This document shows, one piece after another, positions 22,334-46,722 of a stretch of DNA of 64,000 nt. The DNA is from Thermoanaerobaculaceae bacterium (GTDB lineage: Bacteria; Acidobacteriota; Thermoanaerobaculia; Multivoradales; UBA5704): NCBI GenBank assembly GCA_963785165.1, contig CAWAUI010000004.1:3712074-3776073 (forward strand), written 5' to 3'. Position 1 is the stretch's first letter. Every line of letters begins with the position of its first letter. The position numbers were made by a program, and so were the translations under genes. The notes beneath the pieces were generated by a model. It saw nothing but the letters and a program-made list of their open reading frames with translations. It was not told where the DNA came from and did no database searches.

Positions 22334-22342
22334 CGGGGGCGG

Positions 22343-22348
22343 AGTTTA
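22343..22348 (-). promoter_or_regulatory. -10 hexamer TAAACT, 9 nt before ATG 22333 (leaderless-type)
   Basis: Minus strand gcTAAACTccgcccccgATG; no SD. Confidence 0.45.
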
Positions 22349-22351
22349 GCA

Positions 22352-22385
22352 GTCCGTGCCCGTCCGTGCCTGTCCATGTCCGTCC
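22352..22385. repeat. phased GTCC(G/A)T array in a divergent control region
   Basis: gtccgtgcccgtccgtgcctgtccatgtccgtcc; diverged relative of the GTCCTT arrays at 13.7 and 31.6 kb. Confidence 0.55.
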
Positions 22386-22408
22386 AGGAGAGGCGGCCCC
22401 CATCCCCC

Positions 22409-22429
22409 TGGCACACCCCGTGCTATCGT
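22409..22429 (+). promoter_or_regulatory. promoter candidate for the dynamin-like gene (sigma54-like TGGCAC-N5-GTGC overlapping an extended -10-like TGCTATCGT)
   Basis: TGGCAC 22409-22414 and GTGC 22420-22423 with correct spacing. TGCTATCGT 22421-22429 is identical to the motif at 31654-31662. GGAGG lies before ATG 22452. Confidence 0.4.
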
Positions 22430-22451
22430 CCCCCTCGGAGGCGAAAACCCC

Positions 22452-24199
22452 ATGCTGCGGCGCATTCTCAACCCGAATCAGGACGAGCTGCTGGCGGAAA
22501 ACCGCCGCCTGCTCGCGGACCTCCAGCAGGCGCTCGCCCGGTTCGACGCCTCGGCGGAGGACCAGGCGACCGTCAAGCGCTCGGCGTCGCCAGCTCGACG
22601 AGCTGTTCCTCCTCGTGGTGGCCGGCGAGTTCAACGCCGGCAAGAGCGCCTTCATCAACGCCCTCCTCGGCGAGCAAGATCCTGGAAGAGGGGGTCACCC
22701 CCACCACCACCCACGTCCACCTCATCCAGCACGGCGCCGCGGTCACCGCGACGCCGCTCGAGACGGCGCTCGACGTCCTCACCGCGCCGGTCGAGCTGCT
22801 CCAGGACATCAACATCGTCGACACGCCCGGCACCAACGCCATCCACCGCGAGCACGAGGCGATCACCCGCGAGTTCGTGCCGCGGTCGGACATGGTGCTC
22901 TTCGTCACCTCGGCCGACCGCCCGTTCACCGAGAGCGAGCGCGCCTTCCTCCAGGGCATCCGCGACTGGGGCAAGAAGATCGTCGATCGTGCTCAACAAG
23001 ATCGACATCCTCGAGACCCCGGAGGACGTCGAGCGCGTGCTCGCCTTCATCGCGGAGAACGCCAAGGCCCTGCTCGGCTTCACGCCCGAGATCTTCCCGG
23101 TGGCGGCCCGGCTCGCCCTGCGCGGCAAGACGGCCGGCGACGCGGCGCTCCTCGCCCAGAGCCGCTTCGAGGCGCTGGAGCGCTACATCGTCCGAGACGC
23201 TCGACGAGAAGGAGCGGGTCCGCCTCAAGCTCCTCAATCCCCTGGGCGTCGGCCGAGCACCTGGCGGGCAAATACCTGGACGTCGCCGAGCGGCCGCCTC
23301 GAGCCTGCTCAAGGAAGACTTCGCCGACCCTCGAGGACATCGAGCGCCAGCTCGCCCTCTACAAGGAGGACATGCAGCGCGAGTTCCGCTTCCGCCTGGC
23401 CGGACGTGGACAACGTCCTGCGCGAGTTCGAGAACCGCGGCATGAGCTTCTTCGACGACACCATGCGCCTCGCCCGCGTCATGGACCTGCTCAACAAGTC
23501 GAAGATGAAGGCGGACTTCGAGCGCAAGGTGGTGGCCGACCTCGCCGCAGCTCATCGAGCGGCGGGTGAGCGAGGTCATCGACTGGCTGGTCAACTCCGA
23601 CCTGCGCCAGTGGCAGGCGGTCATGGAGCACCTGGCGCTGCGCCGCCAGAAGCACGCGGACCGCATCGTCGGCCAGGTGGGCGGCAGCTTCGACATCGAC
23701 CGCACGCGCCTGCTCGACAGCGTCGGCCGCGAGGCCCAGCGCTCGGTCGAGACGTACGACCGCGAGGCCGAGGCGAACCGGCTGGCCGACTCGGTGCAGA
23801 TGGCCGTGGCCGGCACGGCGCTCGCCGAGGTCGGAGCGCCATCGGCCTCGGCGCCGTCCTCACCCACCTCGCGGTCACGGCGGCGGCGGACTTCACCGGC
23901 ATCCTCGCCGCCGGCACGGTCGCCGTCCTCGGCTTCTTCATCATCCCCAACCGCCGGCAGCGACGGCCAAGAAGGAGCTGCGCGAGAAGATCGAAGCCAT
24001 GCGCGATCAGCTCATGACCTCCCTCACCAGCCAGTTCGACCGCGAGATCGAAGGGAGCCTGCGGCGCATCGACGAGGCGATCGGCCCCTACACCCGCTTC
24101 GTCCGCGCCGAGCGCGACCTGCTCTCCAAGGCCGGCGAGGAGATCACCGCGGTCAATCAGGGGCTGGTGCAGCTGCGGGCTCGGGTGGAATCGCTGTAA
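22452..24199 (+). pseudogene. bacterial dynamin-like GTPase, about 11 frameshifts in this sequence
   Basis: Conserved segments hop between all three frames. They include GEFNAGKSAFINALLGE (P-loop), ILEEGVTPTTTHV, DTPGTNAI, IVLNKIDIL and two TM helices (AIGLGAVLTHL..., GTVAVLGFFIIP). Ends ...LRARVESL at 24199. Confidence 0.8.
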
Positions 24200-24202
24200 G
24201 CT
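24197..24202 (+). promoter_or_regulatory. -10 hexamer TAAGCT, 10 nt before ATG 24213 (leaderless-type)
   Basis: cTGTAAGCTcccccaccgcATG; no SD. Confidence 0.4.
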
Positions 24203-24212
24203 CCCCCACCGC

Positions 24213-25823
24213 ATGAGCACCGCTCCGATTCCCGCCACGAAAAAGCCCGGTACCCTCCGCAGCCTTCGGGACGCCTTCACCTCCTGGCGCACGGCCTCCG
24301 TGACGCTGATGTCCTTCGCCTCCGGCATGCCGCTCGGGCTGGTGTGGATCGCCATGCCCGACTGGATGCGCAAAGCCGGGATGGACATCCGCGTCGTCGG
24401 CCTGATCACCCTGGCCCAGGCGCCGTGGACGTTCAAGTTCCTCTGGTCGCCGCTCATGGACCGCTTCGTGCCGCCCGCTCGGCCGGCGCCGGGGGTGGAC
24501 GGCCATCGCCCAGGTCGGGCTCTTCGTTCGCGACTCTCGTCTCTGGCCGGGGCTCGGCGACCATCCGGACACCCCCTGGGTGATCGGCGCCCTGCGCTCT
24601 GGCCATCGCCTTCGCCGGCGCCACCCAGGACATCGCCGTCGACGCCTACGCGGTCGACGTCCTGCGGCCGGACGAGCAGGCGGTCGCGGTGGGCGCCCGC
24701 AACGCCCTCTACCGCACCGGCATGCAGCTCGCGGGGAGCTTCTCCATCACCATGGCGGGCTGGTGGGGCTGGCCGGCGGTCAACGTCCTCCTGGCCTGCC
24801 TCTACCTGCCGATGCTGCTGGTCACCCTCAAGGCTCCGGAGCCCGCCGGCGTGGCCGTGGCCGCCCCGCACGACCTCAAGGAAGCGGTCTGGTATCCGTT
24901 CCTCGGCTTCCTCTCCCGGCACCGGGCGCTGGAGATCCTCGCCTTCGTCCTTCTCTACAAGCTGGCGGACAACCTCGTGCCAGGCGCTCCAGCGGCCGTT
25001 CCTGGTCGACAAGGGGTACAGCGATTTCGACCGCGGCGTTCGTGCTGTTCTGGATCGGCCTCGTCGGCAACATCGTGGGCACCCTGATCGGCGGGCTGAT
25101 GACCAAGCCCCTCGGCCTCGGCCGCTCGCTCTGGATCTTCGGCTTCTTCCAGATCTTCTCGAACGTCGGGTACGCCCTGGTGGCCCATGAGCCGGGGATC
25201 AACCGGCCGCTGATGTGGGGCGCCTTCGGCTTCGAGTCCTTCGCCAGCGGCCTGGGAAGCGGCGCCTTCCTGGTGCTGCTGATGCGGATGACGCAGAAGC
25301 GCTTCTCGGCCACCCAGTACGCCCTCTTCTCCAGCCTCTTCGGCCTGCCGCGCATCATCTCCGGCCCGCTCGTGCGGCTTCGCGGTCTATGCCATCGGCT
25401 GGGAGACCGTTCTTCTGGGTCACCCTGGCCTTCGGCATCCCCGGCATGGTGATGCTCGCCCGCTTCGTCCCCTGGGGCGCCCGCGAGCCCGAGTTCCGGG
25501 TGGAGCCGCCCACGATCGGCACGCCTTTGACCGGCACCGAGCTTGCCACGCGCGGTTTGGCCGGCGGCGTCATCGGCACGGGCTTCGGCGCTCTCGTCGT
25601 GGCGCTCATGGATGCCCTCCGGGGAGCCAAGGAGAATCCGGGCACCTTCGACCTCGTGACGCCGTTCACCTCCCTGTTCCGGCCCACGGATACTCCGGGC
25701 TGGCTGGGACTGGTGGGGCTGGTCGTCTTCGGCGCCACCTGCGGCCTGCTGACCGCCGCCATCGTGGCGGCGCGGCATGGGGCCGGCCAGGGGATCGCGG
25801 AGGATCTGGCTCCGGAGGTGTGA
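24213..25823 (+). pseudogene. ampG: AmpG-family MFS muropeptide permease, at least 6 frameshifts in this sequence
   Basis: SGMPLGLVWIAMPDWMRKAGMD, FLWSPLMDRFVPP, AFAGATQDIAVDAY, LYKLADNL and LFSSLFGLPRIISGP lie in successive different frames. One example is an extra C at about 24476 (ccgccCgctcggc). Confidence 0.8.
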
Positions 25824-29817: not shown

Positions 29818-31557
29818 TCACTCGAGCGCCTTCCGGAGCTGGAGGGCCCGGTCCACTTCCGGATCCTCCCGCAGGCGGCGCTCGACTTCTTCCCGGACGG
29901 CGGTGCGGAAAAAGGGATCGGTTTCCGCTTTGGCCAGCGTGGCCCGCCAGTCTTCGGGGTGGAGGAAGCGGTACTCCTCCTTCTCCAGCAGAACCGCCCG
30001 CTGCGGGGTCCGCCGCAGGAAGATCATCGCCACGTCATCCCAGTAAACCAGGGCGAAACGCTCGCGGGGGAAGAACAGGGCGTTGGTGGTGTGGTGCTCC
30101 ACCCGGGGCGGGCCGCCGGGACCCCCGCGGACACCAGGCGCGGAGAGCACGGGCCGGGGCCGGTCGTCGTAGCGCACCAGCGCCCCGTCGATCCCGTAGC
30201 GGGCGAGGAGCGCCGTCCACCCCTCGTCGCTGCCGCGGGCGGCGGCCAGCTCGTGAAACAGCCCCGGATTCACCTCGTTGCGGGCGTCGATGAACACCTG
30301 CCGGGGCGGATACAGGCGCCAGAGCAGATACCCGCCGAAGGCCACGTCGTTGTACAGGTTCCCCACACCCTGGCGCTTGGCCAGATCGTCCACCGCCTTT
30401 TCCGGAAAGCGCCCGGGCTCGATGCCGAAACCGGGCCGGAACGCGCCCTGGCGCGGACGCAGGGGACCCCGTGACGGTGGCAGCACGCACCAGAACGCGG
30501 CCAGAAGGCAGGCCAGGGGGACCAGGAGCTTAGCGAAGGGCCGGCTTTCCTGGTCGGGATTCCGGACACGTGTGAGATCCGCCAGGGCCTCGCCCGCGAA
30601 GAACGCCGCGCTCACGAAGAAGAGCCCCTGGTGGCGCAAGCCGGTCGAGGCGAGCCCGGCCAGGAGAAGCGCCACGAGCCCCGTGGCAGGATCGAGCCGC
30701 CGGGCCTTCGCCGCCGCCACCGCGGCCAGCGCGAGGAGCGCCGCCACTCCGCAGAAGAAGAAGAGGAACGGCGCCGGTTCTTTCCAGACCGGCAGCCACT
30801 CCGGATTCGTCCCCGGCAATCCCCGCAGGGCCTCGGCAATGCCGAAAGGAACCGTGAACAGCCCTGCCCCATAGGGGTTCGCCATCAAGGCCAGAACCAT
30901 GAGCGCCGGCAGCCCCACGATCCATCCCCAGGAGATGGGACTTTTCCCGCGGGCTCCTCCGGGCAGCCGCGTCCCCACCAGGTATGCCGCCGTCACGATG
31001 GGCGCGAGCAGCGCTCCGGGATGAAAATTGACCCAAAGAACCACAAGGGGCGGCAGAATCAGGGCCGGAACGCGGCTCCCCGTCCGCCGGAACGATTGAA
31101 GCAACACGATCGAAAGGGGCAACAGGAACAGGCTCGCCAGCTCCGGCCGCAGGAAGAACCGCCCGCGCGCCCCCACGATCGCGATCAGGACGACCAGAGC
31201 CGCCCCCACGGCCGGCGCGCCCGCCCGGCGGAGCGCGGTAAACAACAGAGCCGCCAGGGCCACGACGAGAACCGCCAGCCCCAGGACGAGCGACGGCAAG
31301 CCGAAAAACCTTTCCAACCCGGCGATGACCACCTGGAAAAGCCATTCGTGATCCACCCAAGGGACGCCTTGAGAAGTGAACCGGAACGGGTCGGTCCGTG
31401 GCAGAGCCCCGTGCTCCAGAATCCACCGCCCGCTCGCCAGATGCCAGAAGAGGTCGTACGCCTTCAGCCGCACGGTACCGGCCACAGCCGCGAACAGCAG
31501 CAGGCAGACGCCGGGCGTGAGGGCGGAGCGGGGCTCCGCTGGGGATGGGGGTTCCAT
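29818..31557 (-). CDS. polytopic membrane protein of unknown function (glycosyltransferase-like topology)
   Basis: 579-aa ORF with many hydrophobic helices. N-terminal DLFWHLASGRWILEHGALPRTDPFRFTSQGVPWVDHEWLFQ, soluble C-terminal domain. Confidence 0.7.
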   Translation of the reverse strand: MEPPSPAEPRSALTPGVCLLLFAAVAGTVRLKAYDLFWHLASGRWILEHGALPRTDPFRFTSQGVPWVDHEWLFQVVIAGLERFFGLPSLVLGLAVLVVALAALLFTALRRAGAPAVGAALVVLIAIVGARGRFFLRPELASLFLLPLSIVLLQSFRRTGSRVPALILPPLVVLWVNFHPGALLAPIVTAAYLVGTRLPGGARGKSPISWGWIVGLPALMVLALMANPYGAGLFTVPFGIAEALRGLPGTNPEWLPVWKEPAPFLFFFCGVAALLALAAVAAAKARRLDPATGLVALLLAGLASTGLRHQGLFFVSAAFFAGEALADLTRVRNPDQESRPFAKLLVPLACLLAAFWCVLPPSRGPLRPRQGAFRPGFGIEPGRFPEKAVDDLAKRQGVGNLYNDVAFGGYLLWRLYPPRQVFIDARNEVNPGLFHELAAARGSDEGWTALLARYGIDGALVRYDDRPRPVLSAPGVRGGPGGPPRVEHHTTNALFFPRERFALVYWDDVAMIFLRRTPQRAVLLEKEEYRFLHPEDWRATLAKAETDPFFRTAVREEVERRLREDPEVDRALQLRKALE

Positions 31558-33438: not shown

Positions 33439-33486
33439 GCCCTCACCTCCCCGGCCCAAGGCCGCTCGCGCTCCACGGATCTCTAG

Positions 33487-33495
33487 TGCTACGCT
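33487..33495 (+). promoter_or_regulatory. extended -10 promoter candidate (TGCTACGCT) for the SIR2-STAND gene
   Basis: TGn + TACGCT followed by ctcc. A ctccagc/gctggag hairpin overlaps the GGAG SD before TTG 33532. Confidence 0.35.
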
Positions 33496-33531
33496 CTCCA
33501 GCGTTTCGCTCTTCATTGCTGGAGATGTGAT

Positions 33532-36500
33532 TTGACCAGTCTGCATGACGACCTGAGGTCCGAGATTGCCAAGGGACGTGTCATAGCCATTATCGGGGCC
33601 GGCGTATCGATCGCCGCGACGAAAGGCGATCCGCTGGCCTCCTGGACAGGGCTTCTCGAGAACGGTGTAGACCGGTGTGTGGAACGCTGCGAGCTACCGG
33701 ACGGGTGGAAGGAGCGGCGCAAGGGTGAGATCGCTTCCGGAGACATCGATGAGCTTCTCTCAGCGGCAGAGAACATCTCAAGGAAGCTCGGCGCCCCCAG
33801 CGGCGGTGAGTATGGGGGCTGGCTTCGAGAGACGGTGGGGAGCCTCGAGGCAAAAGACGAATCTGTGCTCGAGGCCCTGAGGGAGCTCGGAGTCATCCTC
33901 GCGACTACGAACTATGACGGTCTACTCGATAGGCCCCCACACCTTCCTGCCGTGACTTGGCGGGATGGCGCCAGGATGGAGCGGGTGGCTCGCGGAGATG
34001 ATCGCGGTGTTCTCCACCTCCACGGCTATTGGGAAGAACCGGAGTCGGTGATCCTCGGAATCCGATCGTACGAGCAGATCTTGAGGGATGGCCATGCCCA
34101 GGCCCTGCAGCAGGCTCTCCGTACGACCGGCACCCTGCTCTTCGTAGGTTGCGGCGAGGGCCTTGGCGATCCGAACTTCCATGCGCTCCGCGACTGGTCC
34201 CGAAAAGTGTTCAAAGGCTCCGAGTACCGCCACTTCCGGCTCTGCCGGGATTCCGAGGCCTCGACAGTCTCAGGCAGGAGCACCCGCAAGAGGAACGAAT
34301 CTTCCCCCTCTCGTATGGGGCGGAATTCGGCGATCTGGCCCCATTCCTCCGTGGTCTCAGATCCGCGACTCCTTCGCGTCCGCTCCCGGTCGTGGTGAAC
34401 GTGAGCGAAACACCGCGGCTCCCGGGCTTGGGATACTGCTTCGGCAGGGATAGTGAAATTCGCGAGCTGGCTGACAGCCTTTGCGCCGATCCGCCGCCAC
34501 CGGTCCCGGTCCTCGGCCAAGCGGGCATCGGCAAGTCGACCGTGGTAATCGCGGCGCTGTATGACGCTCGCGTGAAGTCCCGGTACGGGGAGCGCAGGTT
34601 CTTCGTGAGGTGCGATGGCGCGACGGACCGGGAGAGCCTGGAGAGAGAAATCGCCCGAGGTTTGGGATTGAAAGAGGGCCCCGAGAGCAAGGCCAGCCTT
34701 TTTGACATGCTGGAGAAGAGCGCCCTGGTCCTGGCCATCGACGACGCGGAGACCCCCTACTGGGCGGAGCCTACGGCGGTCGAGGCGCTGCTGGCACAGC
34801 TCGCCACCGTGTCCGGGCTCGCCCTGGTGATCTCCCTCCGGGGTGAGCAGCGCCCCCTTGGACCTCGTTGGCGGGAAGCGATCCGGCTTCAGCCTCTCCT
34901 CCCCACTCCAGCCCGAGACGCTTTCCTGGCAGTGGCAGGCACGAAGTTCAAGAATGATCCGAACCTGGGCCGGCTCCTCCAGGCGGTGGATGGCTGGCCG
35001 CTCGCCTTGACCCTCCTCGCCCACCGGGCGGAGATCGAGACCGACCTGTCCAACCTCTGGGATCTTTGGATGGCCAAGCGGACCGAGTTGCTGCGATCCG
35101 ACGACGACAAGAGCCGGCTGAACATCGACGTTTCCCTGAACCTGTCGATCCACAGCCCACGCATGACGGAGGATTCCAAACGGCTGCTCTCCCTGCTGAG
35201 CGTCCTGCCGGAAGGCATCGCGCAGAACCGGCTGAAGGACTTTTTCCCCCAGGCACCGGAGGCCACCCCGATCCTGCTGAAGGTAGGCTTGGTGCTGATT
35301 GACGGAGGAAGAGTCCGCGCGTTGGCGCCCGTGCGCGAATACGTTCTGGAGAAGCATCCCGTGCCTCGCGAAGACCTGCAACACGCGGTGACGGACTACC
35401 TGAAGTGGGCACAGGAGATTCAGCAATCCCTGGAGGCCAACGCTCTCGAGCTCACACAGCACATGGCGCAGGAGCTCGGCAACCTCGAGGCACTCGTCAT
35501 CGCGAGCCTGACGCCTCCGGTCGCCGATTCGGATTCGACCGACGACACCAGCGAGAAGATCCGCTCCATTCTGAGCCTCGGATCTCTGCTGTCCTCCACG
35601 GGCTTGAGCCCGCGCGCGTCATCCATCGTCGGCAAAGCCCTCCAACGGGCCGAGGATCTCGGAGACACGCGCCTCACGATCGACTGCCTGATCCTGCTCG
35701 GAGACATCGCGCGTATCCATGCCAACTGGGAGGAGGCCCGACGCTACTTTACGCGCAGCGTCGAGCTGAGCCAGCAGATCGGCAACGAATTCCTAGAGGC
35801 AGTGGGCATCTCAAAGCTCGGAGCCGTGGAGCACGGCCTACTCCAAGCTCTCTTCGGCACGCTCCTACTACGAAGAGGCGAACGGTCTCTTTGCCCGGCT
35901 GGGGATGATCGACGAGCAGGGGAGATGTCTCCTGGATCTTGCAAAAGTCCACTTCGACAGCCGGGAGCTTGCCGTCGCGGAGGTTACAGCCCAGGAGGCC
36001 ATGGACTTCTTCCGCCGTACGGAAAACGAGCTGGGAATGGCGAACTGCCTCAACTTCCTGGGCGAGATCGCTTTGGAAGCGGAGAACCCTCCCTTGGCCA
36101 GGGAGCATATCGAAGCCGCTCTGAAAACCTACGAAAAGCTCGCTTCGTCTCTGGGGAGGGCAAACTGCCTCAAGAACCTCGGCAGAGCCGCGCTGAAATC
36201 GAACGCCCCCTCGTCCGCCGCTGCTTCCTTCTCAGAGGCGCTCGACCTGTACAAGCTGATCAACAACCGGCAAGGAGAAGCCGACGGCCTCCTGGGTCTG
36301 GGCGACCTAAAGCAGAGATCGGATCCTGAGGCCGCCAGAGCCAAATACAGAGAGGCCCTGGAGATCTACAAGCGCATTGGGGACCCTTTCCTCATCGCGC
36401 GAGCCCATGTCCGGCTCAGCTACACCGCCCCTCAGGAAAGCGAGCGCAACGAGTCCATGGATGCCGCTCGCGCTGCCTGGACGCGCATAGGTCGAGCTGA

Positions 36501-36558
36501 TTTTGCAGAAGAGCTTCGGCGAGAGCTCGCCTCTTTCCTCCCTGCTCCCCCGGGGTGA
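33532..36558 (+). pseudogene. SIR2-like / NB-ARC (STAND NTPase) / TPR fusion protein (Avs5-type architecture), two frameshifts in this sequence
   Basis: SIR2_2 motifs IIGAGVS, ATTNYDGLL, LHLHGYW, LLFVGCG. NB-ARC motifs GQAGIGKST, LVLAIDDAE, DGWPLALTLLA. TPR array in ORF 35905..36558. Frame breaks near 34255-34265 and 35833. Confidence 0.8.
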
Positions 36559-36580
36559 GGTCAGGGACGCGCGAGAAGTC

Positions 36581-36727
36581 TCAACAGGATGGGCCGCCCC
36601 AGGGATCGATCGAGGTGCCTCCGTCGGCCTCGGCTTCCGCATGGAGGGTGAACGGGCTCGGTAGACACCAGCCTGCGACCAAGACTGCGAGAAGGAGAAG
36701 AGCCAGTCTTATGGTTCGAGAGCGCAT
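36581..36727 (-). CDS. 48-codon small ORF encoding a putative secreted peptide
   Basis: GGAGGTG 8 nt upstream of ATG 36727. MRSRTIRLALLLLAVLVAGWCLPSPFTLHAEAEADGGTSIDPWGGPSC. Last gene of the minus-strand PHA-like/hypothetical/VOC string. Below the ORF-track size cutoff. Confidence 0.35.
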   Translation of the reverse strand: MRSRTIRLALLLLAVLVAGWCLPSPFTLHAEAEADGGTSIDPWGGPSC

Positions 36728-36779
36728 CGTGGTATCACCTCCAGCCTGATTTTAGCACGCGGGGACCGGAGCTGCCTCC

Positions 36780-37301
36780 CTAACTCTCTTCCGCCTCCCC
36801 CAGCAAATCCTCCAGATCCAGCCGGTGCGTGTACATCACCGGCTCTCCTTCCGGACCCCGGGGCCACTCCTCGCGCGGGCGGTCCCAGTACAGCTCGATG
36901 CCGTTCTGGTCCGGGTCCGCGAGATAGATCGCTTCGCTCACTCCGTGGTCCGCGGCGCCTTGCAGCTCCACCCCCGACTCCACGACCCTCCGGAGGGCCA
37001 CCGCCAGATCCCGCCGCGTGGGGTAGCGGATGGCCACGTGGTACAGCCCGGAATGCCCCGGCGGGGGCGGCGTGCCTCCGCGGCTCTCCCAGGTGTTGAG
37101 GCCGATGTGATGGTGGTACCCCCCGGCCGAGATGAACGCCGCCTGCGGGCCGTAGCGGGAGGTCAGCTCGAAGCCCAGCACGTCCTGGTAGAACTTGAGG
37201 GCCCGTTCGAGGTCCGCGACCTTGAGATGGACGTGGCCGATGTCCGTGCCGGCAGGGATGGTGTAGGGCAGAACCGTGAGAGGAGCCGTGGGAGTGGTCA
37301 T
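36780..37301 (-). CDS. VOC-family (glyoxalase/extradiol-dioxygenase-like) protein
   Basis: 173 aa from ATG 37301, which overlaps the upstream stop (ATGA). IGHVHLKVADLERALKFYQDVLGFE and HVAIRYP...AIYLADPDQNGIELY motifs. Confidence 0.85.
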   Translation of the reverse strand: MTTPTAPLTVLPYTIPAGTDIGHVHLKVADLERALKFYQDVLGFELTSRYGPQAAFISAGGYHHHIGLNTWESRGGTPPPPGHSGLYHVAIRYPTRRDLAVALRRVVESGVELQGAADHGVSEAIYLADPDQNGIELYWDRPREEWPRGPEGEPVMYTHRLDLEDLLGEAEES

Positions 37302-38068
37302 GCCCCCGATTCTATGACGCCCACCTTCACCCCTAGCTCCTCCCAGAACCGCGCCTCTTCCCCGCTCATCCGCTTCCCTGTCACCAGGATCCGCCGCAGC
37401 CGCCCGAACGGCAACCGCGCCCGCCGCCGGAGCCACCCCTTCCCCTCCTTCTCCACCCACGTCCGCAACGCGGCCATCTCCTCCGCCGTGCCATGGAACA
37501 CCGTCGGCCTCACCCAGCCGGCGGTTGCCACCCGCAAGGCTGCGTTCGGCTCCAGCACCACCGCGGCTCCCGTCCACGTGGCCCAGGAGAGCATCGCCCG
37601 CTCCTCCGGCCGTTCCAGAGGGCCGCTCAGCACCACGATGTCCCGCGCTCCCTCTTTAGGGGGTGCATCGAGGTCCGCCGCGACGCGCGCCACTGCTTCC
37701 GCAAAGTCCCCCCTCTCCCGGCCGGCGGGAGGGCGATGGGAGAGGGGGCCAGGGGGTGAGGGGTCGAGCGGAATCCGCTCGCCCCATCCTTCCGCCACCG
37801 GACCGGAAACCGGCACCGGTACCATCCCCGCCGCCTGGATGGCCAGATCGAGAACGACAAGATCCGGTAAAGCTGTATAGGAAAAGGATAGGAGAGAACC
37901 CGCCGGCAGGCCGTCCAGCTGCTCCGCCCAGGCGGACATCCTCCGCGCGGCCTCACCCCAGGACCACCAGCGCCAGTCCCACCCCTCGGGACGGAAGAGC
38001 CAGGGCTCCTCGGGGCCGCGCTCGGCGTAGCGGAGCACCGCGGCAGGCAGGGTTGGCGGCTCGGCCAT
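37298..38068 (-). CDS. hypothetical protein with weak resemblance to AMP-dependent synthetase/ligase N-terminal regions (no P-loop motif)
   Basis: 256 aa from ATG 38068 (AAGGGGG upstream). The ORF-track N-terminal extension has no support. Confidence 0.5.
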   Translation of the reverse strand: MAEPPTLPAAVLRYAERGPEEPWLFRPEGWDWRWWSWGEAARRMSAWAEQLDGLPAGSLLSFSYTALPDLVVLDLAIQAAGMVPVPVSGPVAEGWGERIPLDPSPPGPLSHRPPAGRERGDFAEAVARVAADLDAPPKEGARDIVVLSGPLERPEERAMLSWATWTGAAVVLEPNAALRVATAGWVRPTVFHGTAEEMAALRTWVEKEGKGWLRRRARLPFGRLRRILVTGKRMSGEEARFWEELGVKVGVIESGA

Positions 38069-38115
38069 GCAGGCCCCCTTGTTTTCCCCTCTGGGGACGA
38101 TCGGGGACGACGGGG

Positions 38116-38394
38116 TCAGACGGCGATTTTCTTCATGACGGCGGCGATTTTCTGCTCGATGACCGGCTTCATCAGGCTCGCGGGCGGCTTCAGGTGCGCC
38201 CGCCCGATCAGCCAGCCGCCTTCCAGGACGATGGTGGCCTTCGCTCCGGGACCGGAAAGGTGCATCACGTCCCCCTCCCAGTGCCACTTCAACATGCCGC
38301 CCGGAAAAGCTTCCTTCAGGCTGGCGTCGAGCGCGGGCCGGATCTCCTCGATGGATGATTTCGTCGTCGCCACCTCGATGGTCAGGTCACTCAT
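38116..38394 (-). CDS. small protein resembling the putative polyhydroxyalkanoate-system protein family
   Basis: 92 aa from ATG 38394. W.WEGD..H..GPG..G.I.L........A.L pattern. Family call from memory, tentative. Confidence 0.45.
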   Translation of the reverse strand: MSDLTIEVATTKSSIEEIRPALDASLKEAFPGGMLKWHWEGDVMHLSGPGAKATIVLEGGWLIGRAHLKPPASLMKPVIEQKIAAVMKKIAV

Positions 38395-40334: not shown

Positions 40335-40641
40335 GGCGTAGCGCCCCTGGGAGCGCCGGCATCCCTGCCGGCCCTGTCTTTGCGGCCCGAAGGGTCGCGA
40401 GATTTCAGCCCAGGGCTTCGGCCGGTAGGCCGATGCCCTGGGAAGAAAACCTATAAAAAGGCTACGCGGCCTGAAAGGTCGCCAGAGAGTTTTGAGTTGG
40501 ACTCGACTCGGTCCGCCAGTGTTCTCGCGGCCCTTCAGGCCGCAGGACTGGGGGGGACTGTTAACCCAGGGCATCGGCCTACCGGCCGAAGCCCTGGGCT
40601 GAAATCTCGCGACCCTTCGGGCCGCAAAGAGCGCTACGCCA
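40335..40641. repeat. REP/BIME-like cluster: 64-nt perfect inverted repeat enclosing further copies of a 17-nt hairpin motif
   Basis: Arm 40378-40442 is the exact reverse complement of 40566-40629. The motif GCGGCC(C/T)GAA(G/A)GGTCGC occurs at about 40382 and 40466 (+) and about 40536 and 40609 (inverted). Outer ggcgtagcgc (40335) / gcgctacgcc (40632). Confidence 0.85.
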
Positions 40642-40849
40642 ACAGGTCAATCCTGCCTTGACAAAGCACCAGGGCGACACGCCACCGTTCTGGGAGCCCC
40701 AGCGGGGCGAAATCTGAACAGCCCGGTGCGTTAGCGCCGGGTCCGGAACCCACCCGCCTCCTCCGCCCTGGAGGGCCGGTCCCGTCTTCTCCTGATAGAA
40801 TTCCTTCAACCCCGGCGTCGGCCAGCCGTCGACAAGGAAGGAAAGATCG

Positions 40850-43219
40850 GTGAAAACACGCGATAGGGAAGATCTCTATGAGATCGCAGGCCAATTCGTC
40901 GGCTCCGCCCTGCGGCGAGACGACTCCTTATTCACTCCCGGAGAACCCGTCTGGTCCCCTCCCACCCTGGAGGATCTCCATCGCCGTTTCGTAGGCCAGC
41001 CGGACGAGTCCGCGGACAGCTTTGAGAACAAGCTGCAACGCCAACTCGCCGGGGCTCCGACCCGCACCGTCCAACTCATGGGTGAGGTTCTCTACGTTTA
41101 CCTTCTGATGCCGGTGGCGGAGAGCTTTCGGGGAGATAAAAAACGACGGTTGATTGAAACCGTCCTTCAATGGGCGCCGGAGCGCGTCGCCATGCCTCCG
41201 CATTTGGCGAAAGCTCTCGACGGAGGGCTCGTCCGAGTGGGAACGGCCTACAACACCTACCGCCCGTTCCAGCTCCAGTTCGTCATCGAGCAGGTGATGG
41301 CCTGGAAACGGCTGTCCGCCGAGGAACGTGCACGGGCTCTCGAAGATCCCTGGTTGTTCAAGGAAATTGTCTGGAGACTACCCATCTCCAAAGCCTACAT
41401 GGCACGCGAGGCGTTGATCCATCTCGTGTTTCCCGACGTCTTCGAAAACGTCATCGCCCGTGAAGCCAAGAAGCAAATCGCCTTGCGGCTGGCGGCCCTC
41501 TCCACCGAGCCGACGGAAGACGTCGACCGCAAGCTCCTCCAGATCCGGCAACATCTTGCTCAGGACTATGGCGCAACCTTCAGCTTCTATGACAAGGCGG
41601 TCCTCGGACGCTGGCAGGACGACACCAGCCGCTGGGGGCAATTCGTCCACTGGGCTAGGCGTTTCTACGAGCGCCCCGATTTCGACCAGCACGAGAGGGA
41701 TTACAAGCTCGCGGTCTCTCAAAATCTCGCCATGGCCCGGCAAGCTTTGGCGGACGGCGGACCCTGGCTCGCCGCTCTTCGAAAAGCTTTCGATTCGCCG
41801 AACAACCTGACGGGTTGGAGAACGAACGCCAGCTTCCTGAAATGGTGCGAAGTCAATCCACAAGAGGCGTCCCGGGCGCTGGCAACCTTGTGGACCGATC
41901 AAGGCTCCGTGACGCAGCGCATCCGGGAATTCCTGCGGCTGCTGCCGGACGAAGCTCTCCGTGGAGCGGGATCTCGCCTGACGTTGGCTTCTTTTCTCAA
42001 TATGGCATCGGAGCCTCATGACTATCCGGTCTATAGAGAAACCCCCATTCGCAAAGGCTGCGATCTCACGGGCTACCCCCGGCCCGAGCAGGCGGCGGAT
42101 GAAGGAGCCCTTTACGAGCACGCTCTGGGCTTCTTCGACCGCTTATCCGAGGAAGCCTCGGCTCGCGGCCTTGATTTGCGGGATCGGCTCGACGCACAGG
42201 GCGTCCTCTGGTCCGTCGTGAAGTCGACCGACGGCAACGTGGATTTTTCCAAGAAGGAGCAATCGGCATTTCTCCGTTACTTAGCGGGACTCCCCGCCGA
42301 TCCTCCTCCCATCGAGCCGAACGGAGAAGGCACTGCAGAAGTCATAGAGCTACCGAAGACCGGATCCGCCAAGACTCTCGAAGACCTTGCCCACGATCTC
42401 CTTCTGGACGCCGCCTATCTGCGGAAGATCGAGCGGCTACTGAAGGACAAGGGACAGGTGATCTTCCACGGTCCACCGGGTACCGGCAAGACCTTCGTAG
42501 CTCGGGAAATCGCCCGCTTCTTTGCCAGTGACGACGCAATCGAGTTGGTGCAGTTTCACCCCTCCTATTCCTACGAAGACTTTTTCGAGGGCTACCGCCC
42601 AAGCCGGTATGGTGGCGGCTTCAGCCTTCACAAAGGTCCTCTGAGGCGGCTGGCCGAGAAAGCGGCTGCCAAGACTAAGGACGACCTGCACTTTCTGATC
42701 ATCGACGAGATCAACCGCGGCAACCTGGCGAAGATCTTCGGCGAGCTCTACTTCCTCCTCGAATACCGCGATGAGAAGGTCTCCCTCCAGTATTCCGAGG
42801 AGCCGTTCTCGCTGCCTCCGAACCTGAGAGTGATCGGCACCATGAACACCACCGACCGCTCCATCGCCCTCGTGGATCTGGCGCTGCGGCGGCGCTTCCA
42901 TTTCGTACCGTTCACCCCGGCCGCACCTCCCGTCCAGGGACTTCTGCGGCGTTGGCTGGAACAGCACAAACCGAATCTTGTCTGGCTGGCCGAGGTCGTT
43001 GACCGGGCCAACGACCGCCTGGACAACCTGCACGGTGCCATCGGTCCCAGCTACTTCATGCAGAAGAACCTGGACGAGGAGAGTATCGAGCTGATCTGGG
43101 AGCACTCAGTCCTGCCCTATGTTGCGGAACTACTCTTCGGCGAAGAGGGCCGCCTCGAGGAGCTGCAATTGAGCCGCCTCCGCCCGGAGAATCCCGTTGG
43201 AACCCCTGACGCTTCATGA
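40850..43219 (+). CDS. mcrB: McrB-like AAA+ GTPase with a long uncharacterised N-terminal domain
   Basis: 789 aa, GTG start after AAGGAAGGAAAG. GPPGTGKT, LVQFHPSYSYEDFFEGYRP, IIDEINRGNLAKIFGEL, MNTTDRS (McrB signature MNxxDRS), LRRRFHF. Confidence 0.85.
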   Translation: MKTRDREDLYEIAGQFVGSALRRDDSLFTPGEPVWSPPTLEDLHRRFVGQPDESADSFENKLQRQLAGAPTRTVQLMGEVLYVYLLMPVAESFRGDKKRRLIETVLQWAPERVAMPPHLAKALDGGLVRVGTAYNTYRPFQLQFVIEQVMAWKRLSAEERARALEDPWLFKEIVWRLPISKAYMAREALIHLVFPDVFENVIAREAKKQIALRLAALSTEPTEDVDRKLLQIRQHLAQDYGATFSFYDKAVLGRWQDDTSRWGQFVHWARRFYERPDFDQHERDYKLAVSQNLAMARQALADGGPWLAALRKAFDSPNNLTGWRTNASFLKWCEVNPQEASRALATLWTDQGSVTQRIREFLRLLPDEALRGAGSRLTLASFLNMASEPHDYPVYRETPIRKGCDLTGYPRPEQAADEGALYEHALGFFDRLSEEASARGLDLRDRLDAQGVLWSVVKSTDGNVDFSKKEQSAFLRYLAGLPADPPPIEPNGEGTAEVIELPKTGSAKTLEDLAHDLLLDAAYLRKIERLLKDKGQVIFHGPPGTGKTFVAREIARFFASDDAIELVQFHPSYSYEDFFEGYRPSRYGGGFSLHKGPLRRLAEKAAAKTKDDLHFLIIDEINRGNLAKIFGELYFLLEYRDEKVSLQYSEEPFSLPPNLRVIGTMNTTDRSIALVDLALRRRFHFVPFTPAAPPVQGLLRRWLEQHKPNLVWLAEVVDRANDRLDNLHGAIGPSYFMQKNLDEESIELIWEHSVLPYVAELLFGEEGRLEELQLSRLRPENPVGTPDAS

Positions 43220-44447
43220 GCACGCCAAGACCCAGGGGATACGCCTTACGGCTGAGCAGCGGAACGCCATGTACGCTCTCGCTCCTTCCGTAACGCTCTC
43301 TCCCAGTCCCGGTCGCGAGGGTTGCTGGGATCTGACTCCCGGTTCGATCATTGGAGCGATGACTCTACCGGGCCTGGCGGTGATGATCCGCCCCAAGATC
43401 CTCATGGATCGAGTCCTATTCCTCTTGTCCTATGCCCTCGATCCCCGAAGTTGGAAGAACGGCCTCTTCCACTTCGAGGCTCGGAGCAATCTTCTGGAAG
43501 CCATCGTGCCGGGCTTCGTGCGCCAAGTAGGGAAAGCCTTCCGGCGAGGCCTGCTCCAGGGCTACAGGGTTGAAGAAGACGCCTTGATGGGCCTACGCGG
43601 CCGGCTCCGCTTTGATGACCAGCTTCGCCGTCGATTCGGCCGCCTGCCCCCTGTCGAAGTGCGTTTTGACGAATTCACGGTGGACATCGAGCCCAACCGC
43701 CTGATCCTGGCCGCGGTCGACCGTCTGGAGAAAATGCGGTTGCGCTCTCAGGATTCGCGGCGGTCCCTCGCCGGCCTCCATGCCGCCCTGGAGCGGGTCA
43801 GCCTGCGCGAGTACCCGGCGGCCCAGGTTCCGGAAATTGCGTACGACCGCCTGAACGAACACTATCGGGGAGCCGTGGAGCTGGCGCGGTTGATCCTGCG
43901 GTCGGTGTCCTTCGATCTCCGTCATGGCGGCGTCCAGTCGTCCGCTTTCCTCCTCGACATGAACGTGGTTTTTGAGACCTTCGTCGTTACCGCTCTCCGA
44001 GAGGCTCTGGGCGTCTCTCACCGGCAGTTCCCTCAGGGCGCGAGCGACCGGAACCTCTGGCTGGACCAAAAGCGAGCCGTCTCGCTCAAACCTGATCTCT
44101 CCTGGTGGGAAGGAAACACCTGCCACTTCGTGGGGGACGTCAAATACAAGCGAACGGCGGCCTCGGGCGGCCCCAATGCCGACATCTATCAGCTTCTCGC
44201 CTATACCATCGCCACCCGGCTCCCCGGCGGTCTCCTGATCTACGCCGCGGGAGAGGGCGAGCCCGCAATCCACGAAGTCCACGAGATCGGCAAACGGCTG
44301 GAGGTCTGCTCGCTCGACTTGAGCGGAGTTCCCACGGCGATTCTCATGCAGGTCGGAGAATTGGCGGAGAGGATCCGGGCGTCAGTCGTTGCCGCCAAGG
44401 CGGGGGCTGCCAGCCCCGGCTCCATAGGAGCCATAGGCTCCAATTAA
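43197..44447 (+). CDS. mcrC: McrC-like PD-(D/E)xK nuclease subunit
   Basis: 416 aa, TTG start after GGAGA, overlapping mcrB by 23 nt. LKPDLSWW...FVGDVKYK nuclease core. Confidence 0.8.
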   Translation: MEPLTLHEHAKTQGIRLTAEQRNAMYALAPSVTLSPSPGREGCWDLTPGSIIGAMTLPGLAVMIRPKILMDRVLFLLSYALDPRSWKNGLFHFEARSNLLEAIVPGFVRQVGKAFRRGLLQGYRVEEDALMGLRGRLRFDDQLRRRFGRLPPVEVRFDEFTVDIEPNRLILAAVDRLEKMRLRSQDSRRSLAGLHAALERVSLREYPAAQVPEIAYDRLNEHYRGAVELARLILRSVSFDLRHGGVQSSAFLLDMNVVFETFVVTALREALGVSHRQFPQGASDRNLWLDQKRAVSLKPDLSWWEGNTCHFVGDVKYKRTAASGGPNADIYQLLAYTIATRLPGGLLIYAAGEGEPAIHEVHEIGKRLEVCSLDLSGVPTAILMQVGELAERIRASVVAAKAGAASPGSIGAIGSN

Positions 44448-45908
44448 ATCGGAAACCACCTCACGGGACGATAGTAGACCGGCGTTCCAGCACTGCCAGG
44501 CGGCCGTCTGGGCGCCCACTTGATAATCCTCCATCAGCCCTTCAAACACCGAAGGCTCTGCCGCCGCATCCAACACGCCTCCGCTCCGTTCCCGTATGGC
44601 GGACTGAGGCAACAGCATCTCGGCGGCAAAGGCTCCGGAGCGCCGTCTGCGGGGACCGATGGCCCTGTTGGACGAGCCCGCTCCAACGGCCGGGCTCTCA
44701 GGTCCGCCGTCCAGCAGGAGATGCCCAACCCCTCGGAAGATCTCCATGTTTCTTGCCCAGGGTTTCCTCGTCTGGGGAGAAGAAAACAACAGAACCTTCC
44801 CGAACCCGTCCAGATGCCCGCCGATCGCCGCATGATTGTGCGTCGATTCAGGGCCGGAAAGATCATCAATTTCGATGTCGAAATGATCCATCAAGAAATC
44901 ATCAAGATTCTTCAAGGGTTGGCCGTTGAGCCCCAGGTCTCCGCGGATCAACTCGGCAGCCTGGTAGCCTTCTCTCTCAGGTCTTCCTCCAGACGCGACC
45001 TCGAGCGCTCTCAACCTCCGCCTCCGGAATTGGCCCTTCTTCTGCGAACGCGTTGTGCAATCACAGTCAACGACGACTCTGACTACGCCCTCCTCCAGAT
45101 CGAGATCGCGGATTGCCTGCACGGCGGCGCTGTCTTTGGACGTAGCCTGTTGAGGGAGCAGGAGGCGCGTCCGCAGGCCGGACTCTGAAGTCACTCCGAA
45201 TAGCGTTTCAACACCGGACCGAGAGAGGTCGAGCTCCAGTGCCAGTTGATCGAGCAAGCCAATTTCGAGTTGGTTCTCGAAAGCTCCTCGACCACGGCTC
45301 CAGGGGAAGGAGTCCGCGAGGCCGGATTCGAGCAGGCTGCTGCCGACAGAGTCCACGAAATCAGAAAGTGCCTGTTTTGCTTCTCTCCAGGGCACCGCAA
45401 AAATTCCGGCCTGAAAGAGGAACTCCGGCGCGCCGGGGCTGGCAAACCGAGCAGGGGCTGCGCTGATCCAAAGATTCTCGTCTGATCGCACGAAGGCAAG
45501 ATTGGGAAGCCAGGAGCCCTCGGCACCAGCGTGCAGAAAGTGGCCATTGCTCCATTCGAACCGCCGATCGTCCCAGGAATCTCCGTCGAACGACGCGGCC
45601 GGCGCGGAGTCTTTCCAGCTCTGTAACGCCACCATCAAATCGACGTCGGTGGGAAAGGCGCGCGCGGATTCTTCATACGCGATATATCGGGCATACCGCA
45701 CAAGCCAGTCCGCGATGGGAGCCAGTGGTACGTAGACGCCTTCATTCACACTTCGGGTGGCGGGAAACCAGTTGCGGCAGAAATTCTGGTCCGCGGCCCA
45801 AATGGCAAGCTGCGCCCAAGGTCCAAGCTCTCCCGGAGAACGGCGATCCCAACTCGGCGAAACCGGCTCGATATCAAAAGCAAGCCGGCGAACATCCCCG
45901 ATACGCAT
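44382..45908 (-). CDS. uncharacterised 508-aa protein with C-terminal ImmA/IrrE (COG2856)-like domain lacking the HExxH catalytic residues
   Basis: ATG 45908 overlaps the upstream stop (TGATG). GYQAAELIRGDLGLNGQPLKNLDDFL..., then FRGVGHLLLD where HELGH is expected, then RRSGAFAAEMLLPQ (the E.AN.FA..LLMP region). The N-terminal 320 aa have no recognisable motif. A/T-ending codons are frequent. Confidence 0.7.
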   Translation of the reverse strand: MRIGDVRRLAFDIEPVSPSWDRRSPGELGPWAQLAIWAADQNFCRNWFPATRSVNEGVYVPLAPIADWLVRYARYIAYEESARAFPTDVDLMVALQSWKDSAPAASFDGDSWDDRRFEWSNGHFLHAGAEGSWLPNLAFVRSDENLWISAAPARFASPGAPEFLFQAGIFAVPWREAKQALSDFVDSVGSSLLESGLADSFPWSRGRGAFENQLEIGLLDQLALELDLSRSGVETLFGVTSESGLRTRLLLPQQATSKDSAAVQAIRDLDLEEGVVRVVVDCDCTTRSQKKGQFRRRRLRALEVASGGRPEREGYQAAELIRGDLGLNGQPLKNLDDFLMDHFDIEIDDLSGPESTHNHAAIGGHLDGFGKVLLFSSPQTRKPWARNMEIFRGVGHLLLDGGPESPAVGAGSSNRAIGPRRRRSGAFAAEMLLPQSAIRERSGGVLDAAAEPSVFEGLMEDYQVGAQTAAWQCWNAGLLSSREVVSDLIGAYGSYGAGAGSPRLGGND

Positions 45909-46288
45909 CAGTTCAACTCCTTGACAAATTGCCTGTACTCCGCTGCGGTGATGAGACCGCCATCCCGCATTCTACGCAAAACAGGAGGTGGAACACGCCT
46001 GGTAGGATGACCGTGTACCACGATCGTTCCGTCCGGCATCTCGCGCGTAAGCTTGCACTCATAGAATTCCGGCCCCTCCGAAACCCGGCGAATTGCATAG
46101 CGTCGCGGTGTTTCAGGTTGGCCATCGGCAGATACACTTTGCCGGAGCAGTTCCTCTCTCTCCTGAATCGTCATATCAGGAGGACATTTCTCCTTGAAAG
46201 GGATCCACCTCGGAGGTCCTGCCTCCGACGTATGGACTTTGTGAGCCGGCGAAGGCTCATATTCGAAGCGAGGCCCCGGGGTGGTCAT
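45908..46288 (-). CDS. uncharacterised 126-aa protein co-transcribed with the pseudo-ImmA/IrrE gene
   Basis: ATG 46288 with AGGTGA SD. MTTPGPRFEYEPSPAHKVH...FYECKLTREMPDGTIVVHGHPTRRVPPPVLRRMRDGGLITAAEYRQFVKELN. The longer ORF-track version (to 46729) runs through a non-coding repeat. Confidence 0.6.
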   Translation of the reverse strand: MTTPGPRFEYEPSPAHKVHTSEAGPPRWIPFKEKCPPDMTIQEREELLRQSVSADGQPETPRRYAIRRVSEGPEFYECKLTREMPDGTIVVHGHPTRRVPPPVLRRMRDGGLITAAEYRQFVKELN

Positions 46289-46308
46289 CGTATTCACCTG
46301 ACACCGGC

Positions 46309-46314
46309 ATTCTA
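46309..46314 (-). promoter_or_regulatory. -10 hexamer TAGAAT for the 126-aa/508-aa operon
   Basis: Minus strand gggTAGAATgccggtgtcAGGTGAatacgATG. Confidence 0.4.
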
Positions 46315-46398
46315 CCCCACTGCCGTCGGCGACCGCCGGGAGCCGCCTTGACACACCAAGCGCCGCTTCCCAGCCCTCCGGGAGCCGGGGCGCAACAT

Positions 46399-46692
46399 TC
46401 GCCCCGGCCCCTCGGCCGGTTTCCCCTCGGGGCCAACGATGCGGCCCGAGTCCGCGGCCTTGCGGCCCTCGGGGTAAAGGACCGCGGAGGCGGGGAAAGC
46501 GGCGTTCCCCGAGGGGCCAACGGCTTTCCCCTCTGGCCTGATGAGTTTCCCCTTCTCCTCGATGGCGCGGCCCGAGGGGCCAATGATGCGGCCCGAGGGG
46601 CGAACGTTGCGGCCCTCTTCCCGAATGGGGCGGCCCTCGGGGAAACTGGCCGGCCCCTGGGGGAAACTCGGTTTCCCCGCGGGGTAAGCCGC
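46399..46692. repeat. degenerate 21-bp tandem repeat, 14 units
   Basis: Exact 21-nt register from 46399 to 46692. Example units: gcggcccgaggggccaatgat, gcggcccgaggggcgaacgtt, gcggccctcggggaaactggc, tttcccctcggggccaacgat, tttccccgcggggtaagccgc. Core is CCC-N2-GGGG. Confidence 0.85.
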
Positions 46693-46709
46693 CTACCCCG
46701 GTTCCGCGA

Positions 46710-46715
46710 TAGGCT
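46710..46715 (+). promoter_or_regulatory. -10 hexamer TAGGCT, 7 nt before ATG 46723 (leaderless-type)
   Basis: cgcGATAGGCTgaaggccATG; no SD. Same GCGATAGNCT-N7-ATG layout as at 50401. Confidence 0.45.
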
Positions 46716-46722
46716 GAAGGCC

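Follow-up and report, generated by a model that had tools for sequence, protein, structure and literature searches.

Organisation of the locus

The 64-kb window analysed here, a stretch of contig CAWAUI010000004.1 from a Thermoanaerobaculaceae bacterium, carries at 33532-36558 a gene for a SIR2_2 / STAND NTPase / tetratricopeptide repeat (TPR) protein. All coordinates are positions in this window, and labels beginning with L and P denote related loci and proteins. The gene is spread over three overlapping open reading frame (ORF) pieces on the plus strand (33532..34398 in frame 1, 34029..36329 in frame 3, and 35905..36558 in frame 1), and its repaired product is a single chain of ~1,007 residues. 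The original prediction, made from the letters of the window, had described about 1000 codons that would form one polypeptide after frame correction, with the SIR2_2 domain N-terminal, the STAND NTPase central and the TPR array C-terminal, and this description holds. The motifs it quoted were all found in the three-frame translation of the plus strand: IIGAGVS (GAGVS at 33595-33609), TTNYDGLL (from 33904, with TTNYD at 33904-33918), LHLHGYW (from 34012, with LHLHG at 34012-34026), GQAGIGKST (34515-34541), LVLAIDDAE (~34725-34751) and GWPLALTLLA (from 34992). The observed SIR2_2 / STAND / TPR coding region is real, and lies well past chance expectation. The DNA similarity to orthologous loci starts at 33521-33531. 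The features of the gene are as follows.

33521..33534 (+): ribosome-binding site GGAG (33521-33524) and TTG start codon (33532-33534); GGAG-N7-TTG is kept in the window, L001 and L002
33532..34257 (+): frame piece 1 (residues 1-242), which covers the greater part of the SIR2 (SIR2_2/SIRim) domain (Pfam SIR2_2, 52 bits)
34258..34259 (+): frame break 1, a 2-nt insertion 'GC' (GAG[GC]CTCGAC); both bases are missing in L001 and L002
34260..35837 (+): frame piece 2 (residues 243-768), with the last part of the SIR2 domain, the linker, the NTPase module and the first TPRs (Pfam nSTAND1, AAA_16)
34449-35363 (+): NTPase module within piece 2, comprising nucleotide-binding, helical and winged-helix domains (NBD-HD-WHD); Walker A at 34515-34541, Walker B at ~34725-34751, GWPLAL at 34992-35009
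~35838 (+), exact base ambiguous within 35836-35840: frame break 2, a 1-nt insertion, the extra C in CACGGCCTAC (CACGG[C]CTAC); missing in L001 and L002
35839..36558 (+): frame piece 3, residues 769-1007 and the TGA stop codon, remaining TPRs (Pfam TPR_12, 57.7 bits)
35547-36537 (+): whole TPR array, ~17 helices, about 8 repeats of 40 aa

Domain composition and predicted structure

Hidden Markov model (HMM) searches, which had been suggested as a check of the domain assignments, supported the SIR2_2 domain (PF13289; 52.4 bits, E 8e-14, cut-off 24.5 bits) and the TPR region (TPR_12, at the score listed above). The NTPase module passed the cut-off for nSTAND1 (PF20703; 35.1 bits on the piece and 33.1 bits at full length, cut-off 27.1) and the curated cut-off for AAA_16 (33.5 bits). 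The name NB-ARC (PF00931), which had been given to this module, stood in part. The window copy scored 17.8-19.5 bits and fell below the 23.5-bit cut-off, while nSTAND1 passed. Relatives with the same NTPase module did pass it (P0268 at 29.1, P0327 at 39 and P0243 at 78 bits), and the GWPLAL motif resembles the NB-ARC GLPL motif. In 40 members of the family, SIR2_2 and TPR_12 were each matched in 40/40, AAA_16 in 39/40, NB-ARC in 22/40 (E ≤ 0.01) and nSTAND1 in 12/40.

The residues expected to be essential are intact. G22, G24, T125, N127, Y128, H162, H164 and G165 of the SIR2 domain are invariant in 59 homologues and are kept in the window copy, as are G328, G331, G333 and K334 (Walker A), D403 (Walker B) and R436 of the NTPase. 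Judged by its sequence, the SIR2 domain belongs to the SIR2_2/SIRim type, with a Rossmann GAGxS motif, the putative catalytic Asn and His, and an absent zinc module.

An AlphaFold2 model of the repaired ORF was built on the 59-sequence alignment (predicted local distance difference test 87.6, predicted template modelling score 0.67). In agreement with the predicted order of parts, it comprised a SIR2 domain (1-275), a disordered linker, an NTPase (306-610) and TPR helices (672-1001). The NTPase is predicted to consist of a beta-alpha NBD (324-437), an HD (457-520) and a WHD (526-610), and DSSP analysis of the model counted 17 helices at 672-1001, or about eight 40-residue TPRs. The modelled chain has the general features of a STAND protein: Walker A and B motifs (GQAGIGKST, LAIDD), helical and winged-helix domains, and a repeat sensor. 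The best whole-chain match of the model in the PDB was the archaeal STAND-TPR protein PH0952 (6mfv; E 1.7e-12, template modelling (TM) score 0.63), and the SIR2 fold matched FAM118B, ThsA and DSR2.

A large family with exchangeable N-terminal heads

A search with the repaired 1,008-aa query returned 540 homologues, of which hundreds are full-length (~1,000 aa). The top homologue, P0001 (1,026 aa), is intact and 74% identical over 99% of the length (E = 0), followed by P0003 (73%) and P0002 (60%). With the NTPase module alone as query, 878 clusters (50% identity) were found at E ≤ 1e-30 and 3,071 at E ≤ 1e-3. The gene is one member of a large, experimentally uncharacterised soil-bacterial family, and this family is of the already known SIR2-effector STAND/NLR-like kind.

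In relatives 36-44% identical in the NTPase module, the SIR2 domain is replaced by a TIR domain (four cases), DUF4365, the DNA-binding Trans_reg_C or an FAD oxidoreductase. The proteins with other heads on the NTPase-TPR chassis are P0252, P0276, P0288, P0289, P0264, P0275, P0327 and P0243. DUF4365 is listed in Pfam as a domain of unknown function only, and we take it to be a nuclease-like effector. From these sequences, the chassis is an NB-ARC-like STAND with exchangeable heads, a hallmark of conflict systems; some of the relatives look regulatory. At least 90 defence-associated STAND families are described, most with TPR-like sensors (2026 preprint, PMC12803255), and the SIR2-STAND-TPR family would, by analogy, add another.

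Comparison with Avs5 and other known systems

Avs5 consists of Sir2, an nSTAND3 NTPase of SAMD9-rooted type and an unusually short sensor, with one TPR and one Sel1 motif in PaAvs5-1 (PMC11897194, PMC12931631). An N-terminal SIR2 domain with a catalytic Asn (N141 in EfAvs5) is also present here (N127 of TTNYD). Like EfAvs5 and PaAvs5, the product is one chain that begins with a SIR2 effector domain of the NADase type, continues with a STAND NTPase containing the Walker A and B motifs, and ends in a repeat sensor, and the two would be expected to share the logic by which ligand-induced assembly switches on NAD+ hydrolysis (PMC11897194, PMC12931631). The NTPase is nSTAND3/SAMD9-related in Avs5, whereas it is NB-ARC/AAA_16/nSTAND1-like here, and the sensor here comprises ~8 TPRs over 330 aa. 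Furthermore, EfAvs5 has an Asn at the position of the conserved His (H164) in this family.

The label 'Avs5-type' in the original prediction was not upheld. No PADLOC Avs/AVAST model matched the window protein or three homologues at E ≤ 1; the PADLOC matches were to the ThsA, LmuA and Dsr1 models, weakly and on the N-terminal domain (E 1e-7 to 6e-4), and to generic TPR models. nSTAND3 was not among the 25 most frequent Pfam families listed for the 40 family members, and no Avs5 chain was among the best 60 PDB matches listed for the family profile. The Avs5 filament (9nc9, chain 9nc9_G) aligned weakly with the model (TMq 0.23). Membership of Avs5 was therefore rejected: neither the nSTAND3 clade and Avs5 models nor the short sensor fits this protein (~17 helices, about 8 TPRs, 672-1001). 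Because these two defining features are lacking, the protein resembles Avs5 in design and is not a member of it.

The closest solved relative of the SIR2 domain by sequence was human FAM118B (E 3e-18 in a single-sequence search; 100 bits and E 8e-28 for the family profile); ThsA and DSR2 reached 36 and 28 bits with that profile. FAM118B shares the SIR2 fold (TM 0.72-0.73 at 23% identity) and the catalytic Asn and His, whereas it is a stand-alone sirtuin whose filaments form spontaneously via vertebrate-specific surface patches. Fungal and animal SIRim-NACHT/NB-ARC-TPR proteins belong to the FAM118B lineage (clade A), for which a bacterial origin has been proposed (Bonhomme et al., bioRxiv 10.1101/2024.09.18.613514). 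The bacterial family mirrors the tripartite SIR2 / NTPase / repeat architecture of these clade A members. It might conceivably be the sister group of the eukaryotic SIRanc/FAM118 lineage; if so, bacteria would already have put together the SIR2 / NB-ARC / TPR architecture.

The NTPase and TPR part resembles PH0952 of Pyrococcus horikoshii (15% identity; the alignment covers 741 columns), and the TPR region matches AfsR and Pfam TPR_MalT. Unlike the present protein, PH0952, MalT and AfsR carry no SIR2 effector, and they are signalling or transcription proteins rather than suicide effectors. ThsA of Thoeris, DSR1/DSR2, SIR2-HerA and LmuA-type proteins share the SIR2_2-type NADase domain, whereas their sensing parts are SLOG/Macro, HEAT-like or HerA, with no P-loop STAND followed by TPRs.

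Frame breaks

The two frame breaks reported by the original prediction are both present in the sequence, and both are insertions (+2 at 34258-34259 and +1 near 35838). When the DNA of the window copy was aligned with two intact orthologues, L001 and L002, it differed by four indels: these two insertions, an in-frame 3-nt deletion and an in-frame 6-nt insertion. At the first break, the protein alignment showed the homologues to be one residue shorter than a '-1' repair would give. At the second, dropping the extra base gives VEHGYSKL, where the orthologues read VEQGFSQL or VEQGYSNL. Programmed frameshifting was dropped as an explanation, since the intact orthologues are unbroken at both sites.

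Other genes of the window are broken in a similar manner. The soil-metagenome contigs L009 and L010 are colinear with the window over 21.9-29.7 kb, and the following genes, single intact ORFs in both contigs, are split over frames in the window.

22170-25820 and ~27800: broken housekeeping genes (dynamin-like GTPase, major facilitator superfamily (MFS) transporter, S8/SLH protease); intact in L009/L010

Three-way alignments with L009 and L010 identified 17 window-unique indels of a length other than a multiple of three in the dynamin-like GTPase (11) and MFS (6) genes. Sixteen of the 17 were 1-2-nt insertions, mostly of G or C, and lay outside homopolymer runs. The S8/SLH protease gene contained one frame switch. 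The frame switches were reproduced independently by a G+C-based codon-phase segmentation. The best frame pieces of the genes with 6-11 breaks showed 75-94% protein identity to their relatives, and the DNA identity of the broken genes to relatives (83-86%) was at the level of the intact aldehyde dehydrogenase gene. Similarly, the window copy of the SIR2-STAND-TPR gene keeps 52/52 invariant family positions, and its pieces contain no in-frame stops. At 199 columns conserved to at least 90%, the window copy had 19 mismatches, against 20 in P0001 and 24 in P0002, both intact.

Because the insertions in the genes of the window come without relaxed constraint, the two breaks are likely to be assembly errors rather than decay, and the gene is probably intact in the organism. 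The main alternative is a true pseudogene, in which a horizontally acquired SIR2-STAND-TPR gene would have lost its function in this lineage through two real insertions; the most that could then be made is a SIR2-only product of 288 aa that ends in an out-of-frame tail. The two breaks stand in the sequence as given, frame breaks are spread unevenly along the window, the family has degraded copies elsewhere (L007 and L008), and abortive-infection genes, being costly, are often lost. Against this, both breaks are insertions, and conserved housekeeping genes of the window are riddled with such insertions too while showing no relaxed constraint, the pieces and the invariant residues are preserved, and the deviations at conserved columns match those of intact relatives. 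Bacterial mutation is generally biased toward deletions, which the 16 insertions versus one deletion oppose. We therefore regard a true pseudogene as unlikely, if still the strongest of the alternatives. The pseudogene status implied by the original prediction thus stands only as far as the two breaks are real in the sequence; as the breaks are like the insertion-type lesions of the housekeeping genes, the status itself is doubtful.

Several related loci carry irregular copies of their own. Family copies are degraded or partial in contigs of Streptosporangiaceae and Solirubrobacterales metagenome-assembled genomes (MAGs): L007 (448-2389) has a copy split over two frames with residues 278-483 missing, and L008 (1361-1921) has a SIR2 fragment only. 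In L002 (10001-14185; Acidobacteriota MAG chromosome OY970373.1), the orthologue lacks a stop codon at the corresponding site and continues for ~400 codons over the antisense strand of the small ORF described below, possibly because of a lost stop codon or an assembly error.

Genomic setting

The gene lies in a block that related contigs lack.

33454..36797 (no strand assigned): block present in the window, absent between the aldehyde dehydrogenase and VOC genes of the related contigs L009 and L010 (blastn)

By blastn, the colinearity of L009 and L010 with the window stops at 33453 and resumes at 36790/36798. The aldehyde dehydrogenase gene and the convergent VOC/glyoxalase gene lie 550 nt apart in L009; in L010 the gap measures 2,150 nt and holds a different gene. 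A membrane-protein gene occupies this gap in both L010 and L096. The SIR2 gene was found in 0/80 aldehyde dehydrogenase loci. As the block is absent from L009, L010 and all 80 of these loci, 33454-36797 is an indel in a variable slot. The gene of the slot in L010 (9749-11845, -) and L096 (8906-10975) encodes a membrane protein of ~698 aa and was apparently called on the wrong strand in L096; the slot of L009 is empty.

The A/T-richer islet between core genes that had been noted at this position was confirmed, with a G+C of 0.61-0.64 versus 0.68-0.70 in the flanks. The G+C at third codon positions was 0.72-0.80 in the block versus 0.92-0.93 in the neighbouring genes. The named relatives of the adjacent aldehyde dehydrogenase (75-82% identity) were all from Thermoanaerobaculia, which makes the host Thermoanaerobaculia-like. 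In L001, L002, L092 and L093, the orthologues have unrelated surroundings, and their DNA similarity to the window runs from 33521/33531 to about 36769. In the explanation that we favour below, a block of ~3.3 kb with the gene and a small convergent ORF was acquired into the variable aldehyde dehydrogenase-VOC/glyoxalase slot. No flanking direct or inverted repeats and no integrase mark the block ends, and the window has no Rfam match.

The neighbouring genes in the window encode an aldehyde dehydrogenase, a VOC/glyoxalase protein, an AMP-binding fragment, a polyhydroxyalkanoate-granule protein and an M48 peptidase. The neighbours of the homologues include non-ribosomal peptide synthetase, glycosyltransferase and metabolic genes and a RapA-like SNF2 helicase; the last, which lies beside the L003 copy, looks like a generic RapA.

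Three further regions of the window were recorded. A second block absent from L009 and L010 (29655-31653) contains a gene for a 579-aa multi-pass membrane protein (29818-31557, -) with no Pfam, NCBIfam or PADLOC match. In the 329-aa ORF at 37298-38287 (-), similarity to the AMP-binding domain is confined to about the first 77 positions of that domain, and the codon-phase signal shifts at ~37310 and ~37646; it may be a broken gene. The region 40362-46739 has a lower G+C (~0.60 at 41-43.5 kb) and little codon-phase signal, and could be foreign or error-rich.

Proposed mechanism and role

The best explanation overall, to which we assign a probability of roughly 0.6, is that the gene encodes an NLR-like SIR2-STAND-TPR protein, carried on an acquired block and working in an Avs5-like manner, and that its frame breaks are assembly errors. 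By analogy with characterised systems, we infer an antiviral, NAD-depleting role. The mechanism was modelled on characterised STAND and Avs proteins, PH0952, ThsA, Avs5 and FAM118B. In the resting state, the TPR array would keep the ADP-bound NTPase closed. Binding of a putative ligand to the TPR array, probably an invader protein, would permit nucleotide exchange and oligomerisation. Oligomerisation would gather the SIR2 domains and switch on the presumed NAD+ hydrolysis, and the cell would be arrested. It is by this analogy that a ligand, oligomerisation, NADase activity and a role in defence are ascribed to the protein.

A number of observations weigh against this explanation. No full-length relative was found in the plasmids and phages searched. 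No recognisable defence system was seen in the roughly seven contexts inspected, and the neighbours of the homologues gave no specific PADLOC matches. The protein is not assigned to defence by PADLOC or NCBIfam. Trans_reg_C and FAD oxidoreductase heads are also found on the NTPase-TPR chassis, so a suicide effector is not universal among the relatives. Finally, the breaks are clustered, with 17 in 3.6 kb versus none in the 1.7-kb aldehyde dehydrogenase gene, which a uniform error rate fails to explain.

Some of these observations would suit a protein that is not antiviral at all, but a signalling STAND of the MalT/AfsR/PH0952 kind, in which the SIR2 domain would be an NAD-dependent regulatory or modifying enzyme serving physiology or developmental cell death. 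PH0952, to which the whole model aligned best, is a STAND protein outside defence, and the TPR region is matched by a regulator, AfsR. DNA-binding Trans_reg_C or FAD oxidoreductase heads occur in relatives that share the NTPase module, known defence neighbours were not seen in the contexts inspected, and the PADLOC matches were limited to generic SIR2 and TPR models. The SIR2 domain argues otherwise. It is of the SIR2_2/SIRim type, of which the bacterial members are reportedly 12-fold enriched near defence systems (bioRxiv 10.1101/2024.09.18.613514), and the zinc module of deacetylating sirtuins is missing from it (PMC12700824). Furthermore, the chassis swaps SIR2 with TIR and DUF4365, and the gene is patchy, compositionally unlike its host and differently placed in each genome. 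A purely signalling role thus appears improbable, and less likely than a pseudogene.

Small convergent ORF

The DNA block shared with L001 (33531-36769) runs ~210 nt beyond the stop codon of the SIR2-STAND-TPR gene, and takes in a small ORF. The ORF and its homologues are as follows.

36581..36727 (-): small ORF of 48 aa with a signal-peptide-like N-terminus and a conserved DGGTSIDPWGGP core; present by all 7 close homologues
L001 3852-4001 (-): small ORF homologue
L002 13027-13242 (-): small ORF homologue
L092 5751-5918 (-): small ORF homologue
L093 2557-2691 (-): small ORF homologue
L094 556-723: small ORF homologue
L095 297-464: small ORF homologue

The translation of the small ORF is MRSRTIRLALLLLAVLVAGWCLPSPFTLHAEAEADGGTSIDPWGGPSC, and its predicted mature peptide is EAEADGGTSIDPWGGPSC. 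A GGAGG lies at 36742-36738, 10 nt upstream of the ATG, and an AT-rich TAAAAT at 36754-36749; the GGAGG, the ATG and the upstream AT-rich hexamer are conserved among the loci. Equivalent ORFs of 44-71 aa were found at 7/7 close loci (the window, L001, L002, L092, L093, L094 and L095), where close loci are those of the subclade with at least 60% identity. They have a signal-peptide-like N-terminus and the core GG[TS]SIDPxG, and they are convergent with the large gene, from which they are separated by no more than tens of nt at the loci that were measured. The differences between the small ORFs concentrate at third codon positions as compared with the first two, and the substitution pattern suggests that the small ORF is a real coding gene. 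It has no Pfam or NCBIfam match, and only two called relatives were found in a set of 5.8 billion proteins. More distant members of the family are without the small ORF (L003, L089 and L091). Beside a 46%-identical family member, L090 has an unrelated convergent ORF (10996-11190, -) with a leader-like N-terminus and a Cys-rich C-terminus (…GESICWCITHICISEGYTGCVACNS) resembling a ribosomally synthesised and post-translationally modified peptide.

The two genes could conceivably form a module in which the TPR sensor has as its ligand or guarded signal either the mature secreted peptide or the precursor before export, so that the NADase would be gated by a self-encoded peptide. The peptide might act as a re-imported signal in the RRNPP/arbitrium manner, or the unexported precursor might be a guarded reporter of disturbed secretion during infection. 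The RRNPP family comprises TPR receptors that bind small secreted peptides, and so provides a precedent. In RRNPP receptors (Rap, NprR, PlcR and AimR), as here, the gene of a TPR protein lies beside a small gene for a pro-peptide with a signal peptide and a conserved C-terminal core. RRNPP systems are Gram-positive or phage-borne and have helix-turn-helix or phosphatase outputs and a same-strand peptide gene, whereas this locus has a diderm host, a putative SIR2 output via a STAND switch and a convergent small ORF, and any peptide binding would be putative. The presence of the ORF at every locus of the subclade, always convergent, its conserved GGAGG, ATG and core, its coding-type substitutions and its position inside the block that moved into the aldehyde dehydrogenase-VOC slot would all be in keeping with a module. 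Nevertheless, such a module is very improbable, as L003, L089 and L091 lack the ORF, the peptide looks exported while the receptor has no signal sequence, the arrangement is convergent and not operonic, and hitch-hiking in a recently spread cassette explains the linkage equally well.

Significance

The architecture class is already known, and this gene adds a further SIR2-effector STAND/NLR-like protein to it. The conserved gene for a small secreted peptide is the sole unexpected element; together with the kinship to FAM118B, it raises the interest of the locus slightly. A practical lesson is that frame breaks in this window should not be taken as biology without reads.

The SIR2-STAND-TPR family goes unrecognised by the defence catalogues now in use (PADLOC v2). 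Of the bacterial-type relatives of human FAM118B, which acts in innate immunity, its NADase head is the closest found here, and the intact orthologue P0001 is therefore a reasonable subject for asking how far the NLR-plus-sirtuin design reaches into bacteria. If active, the protein would stand for a SIR2-effector STAND family that lies outside Avs5 and numbers hundreds to thousands of members among soil phyla that have been little studied.

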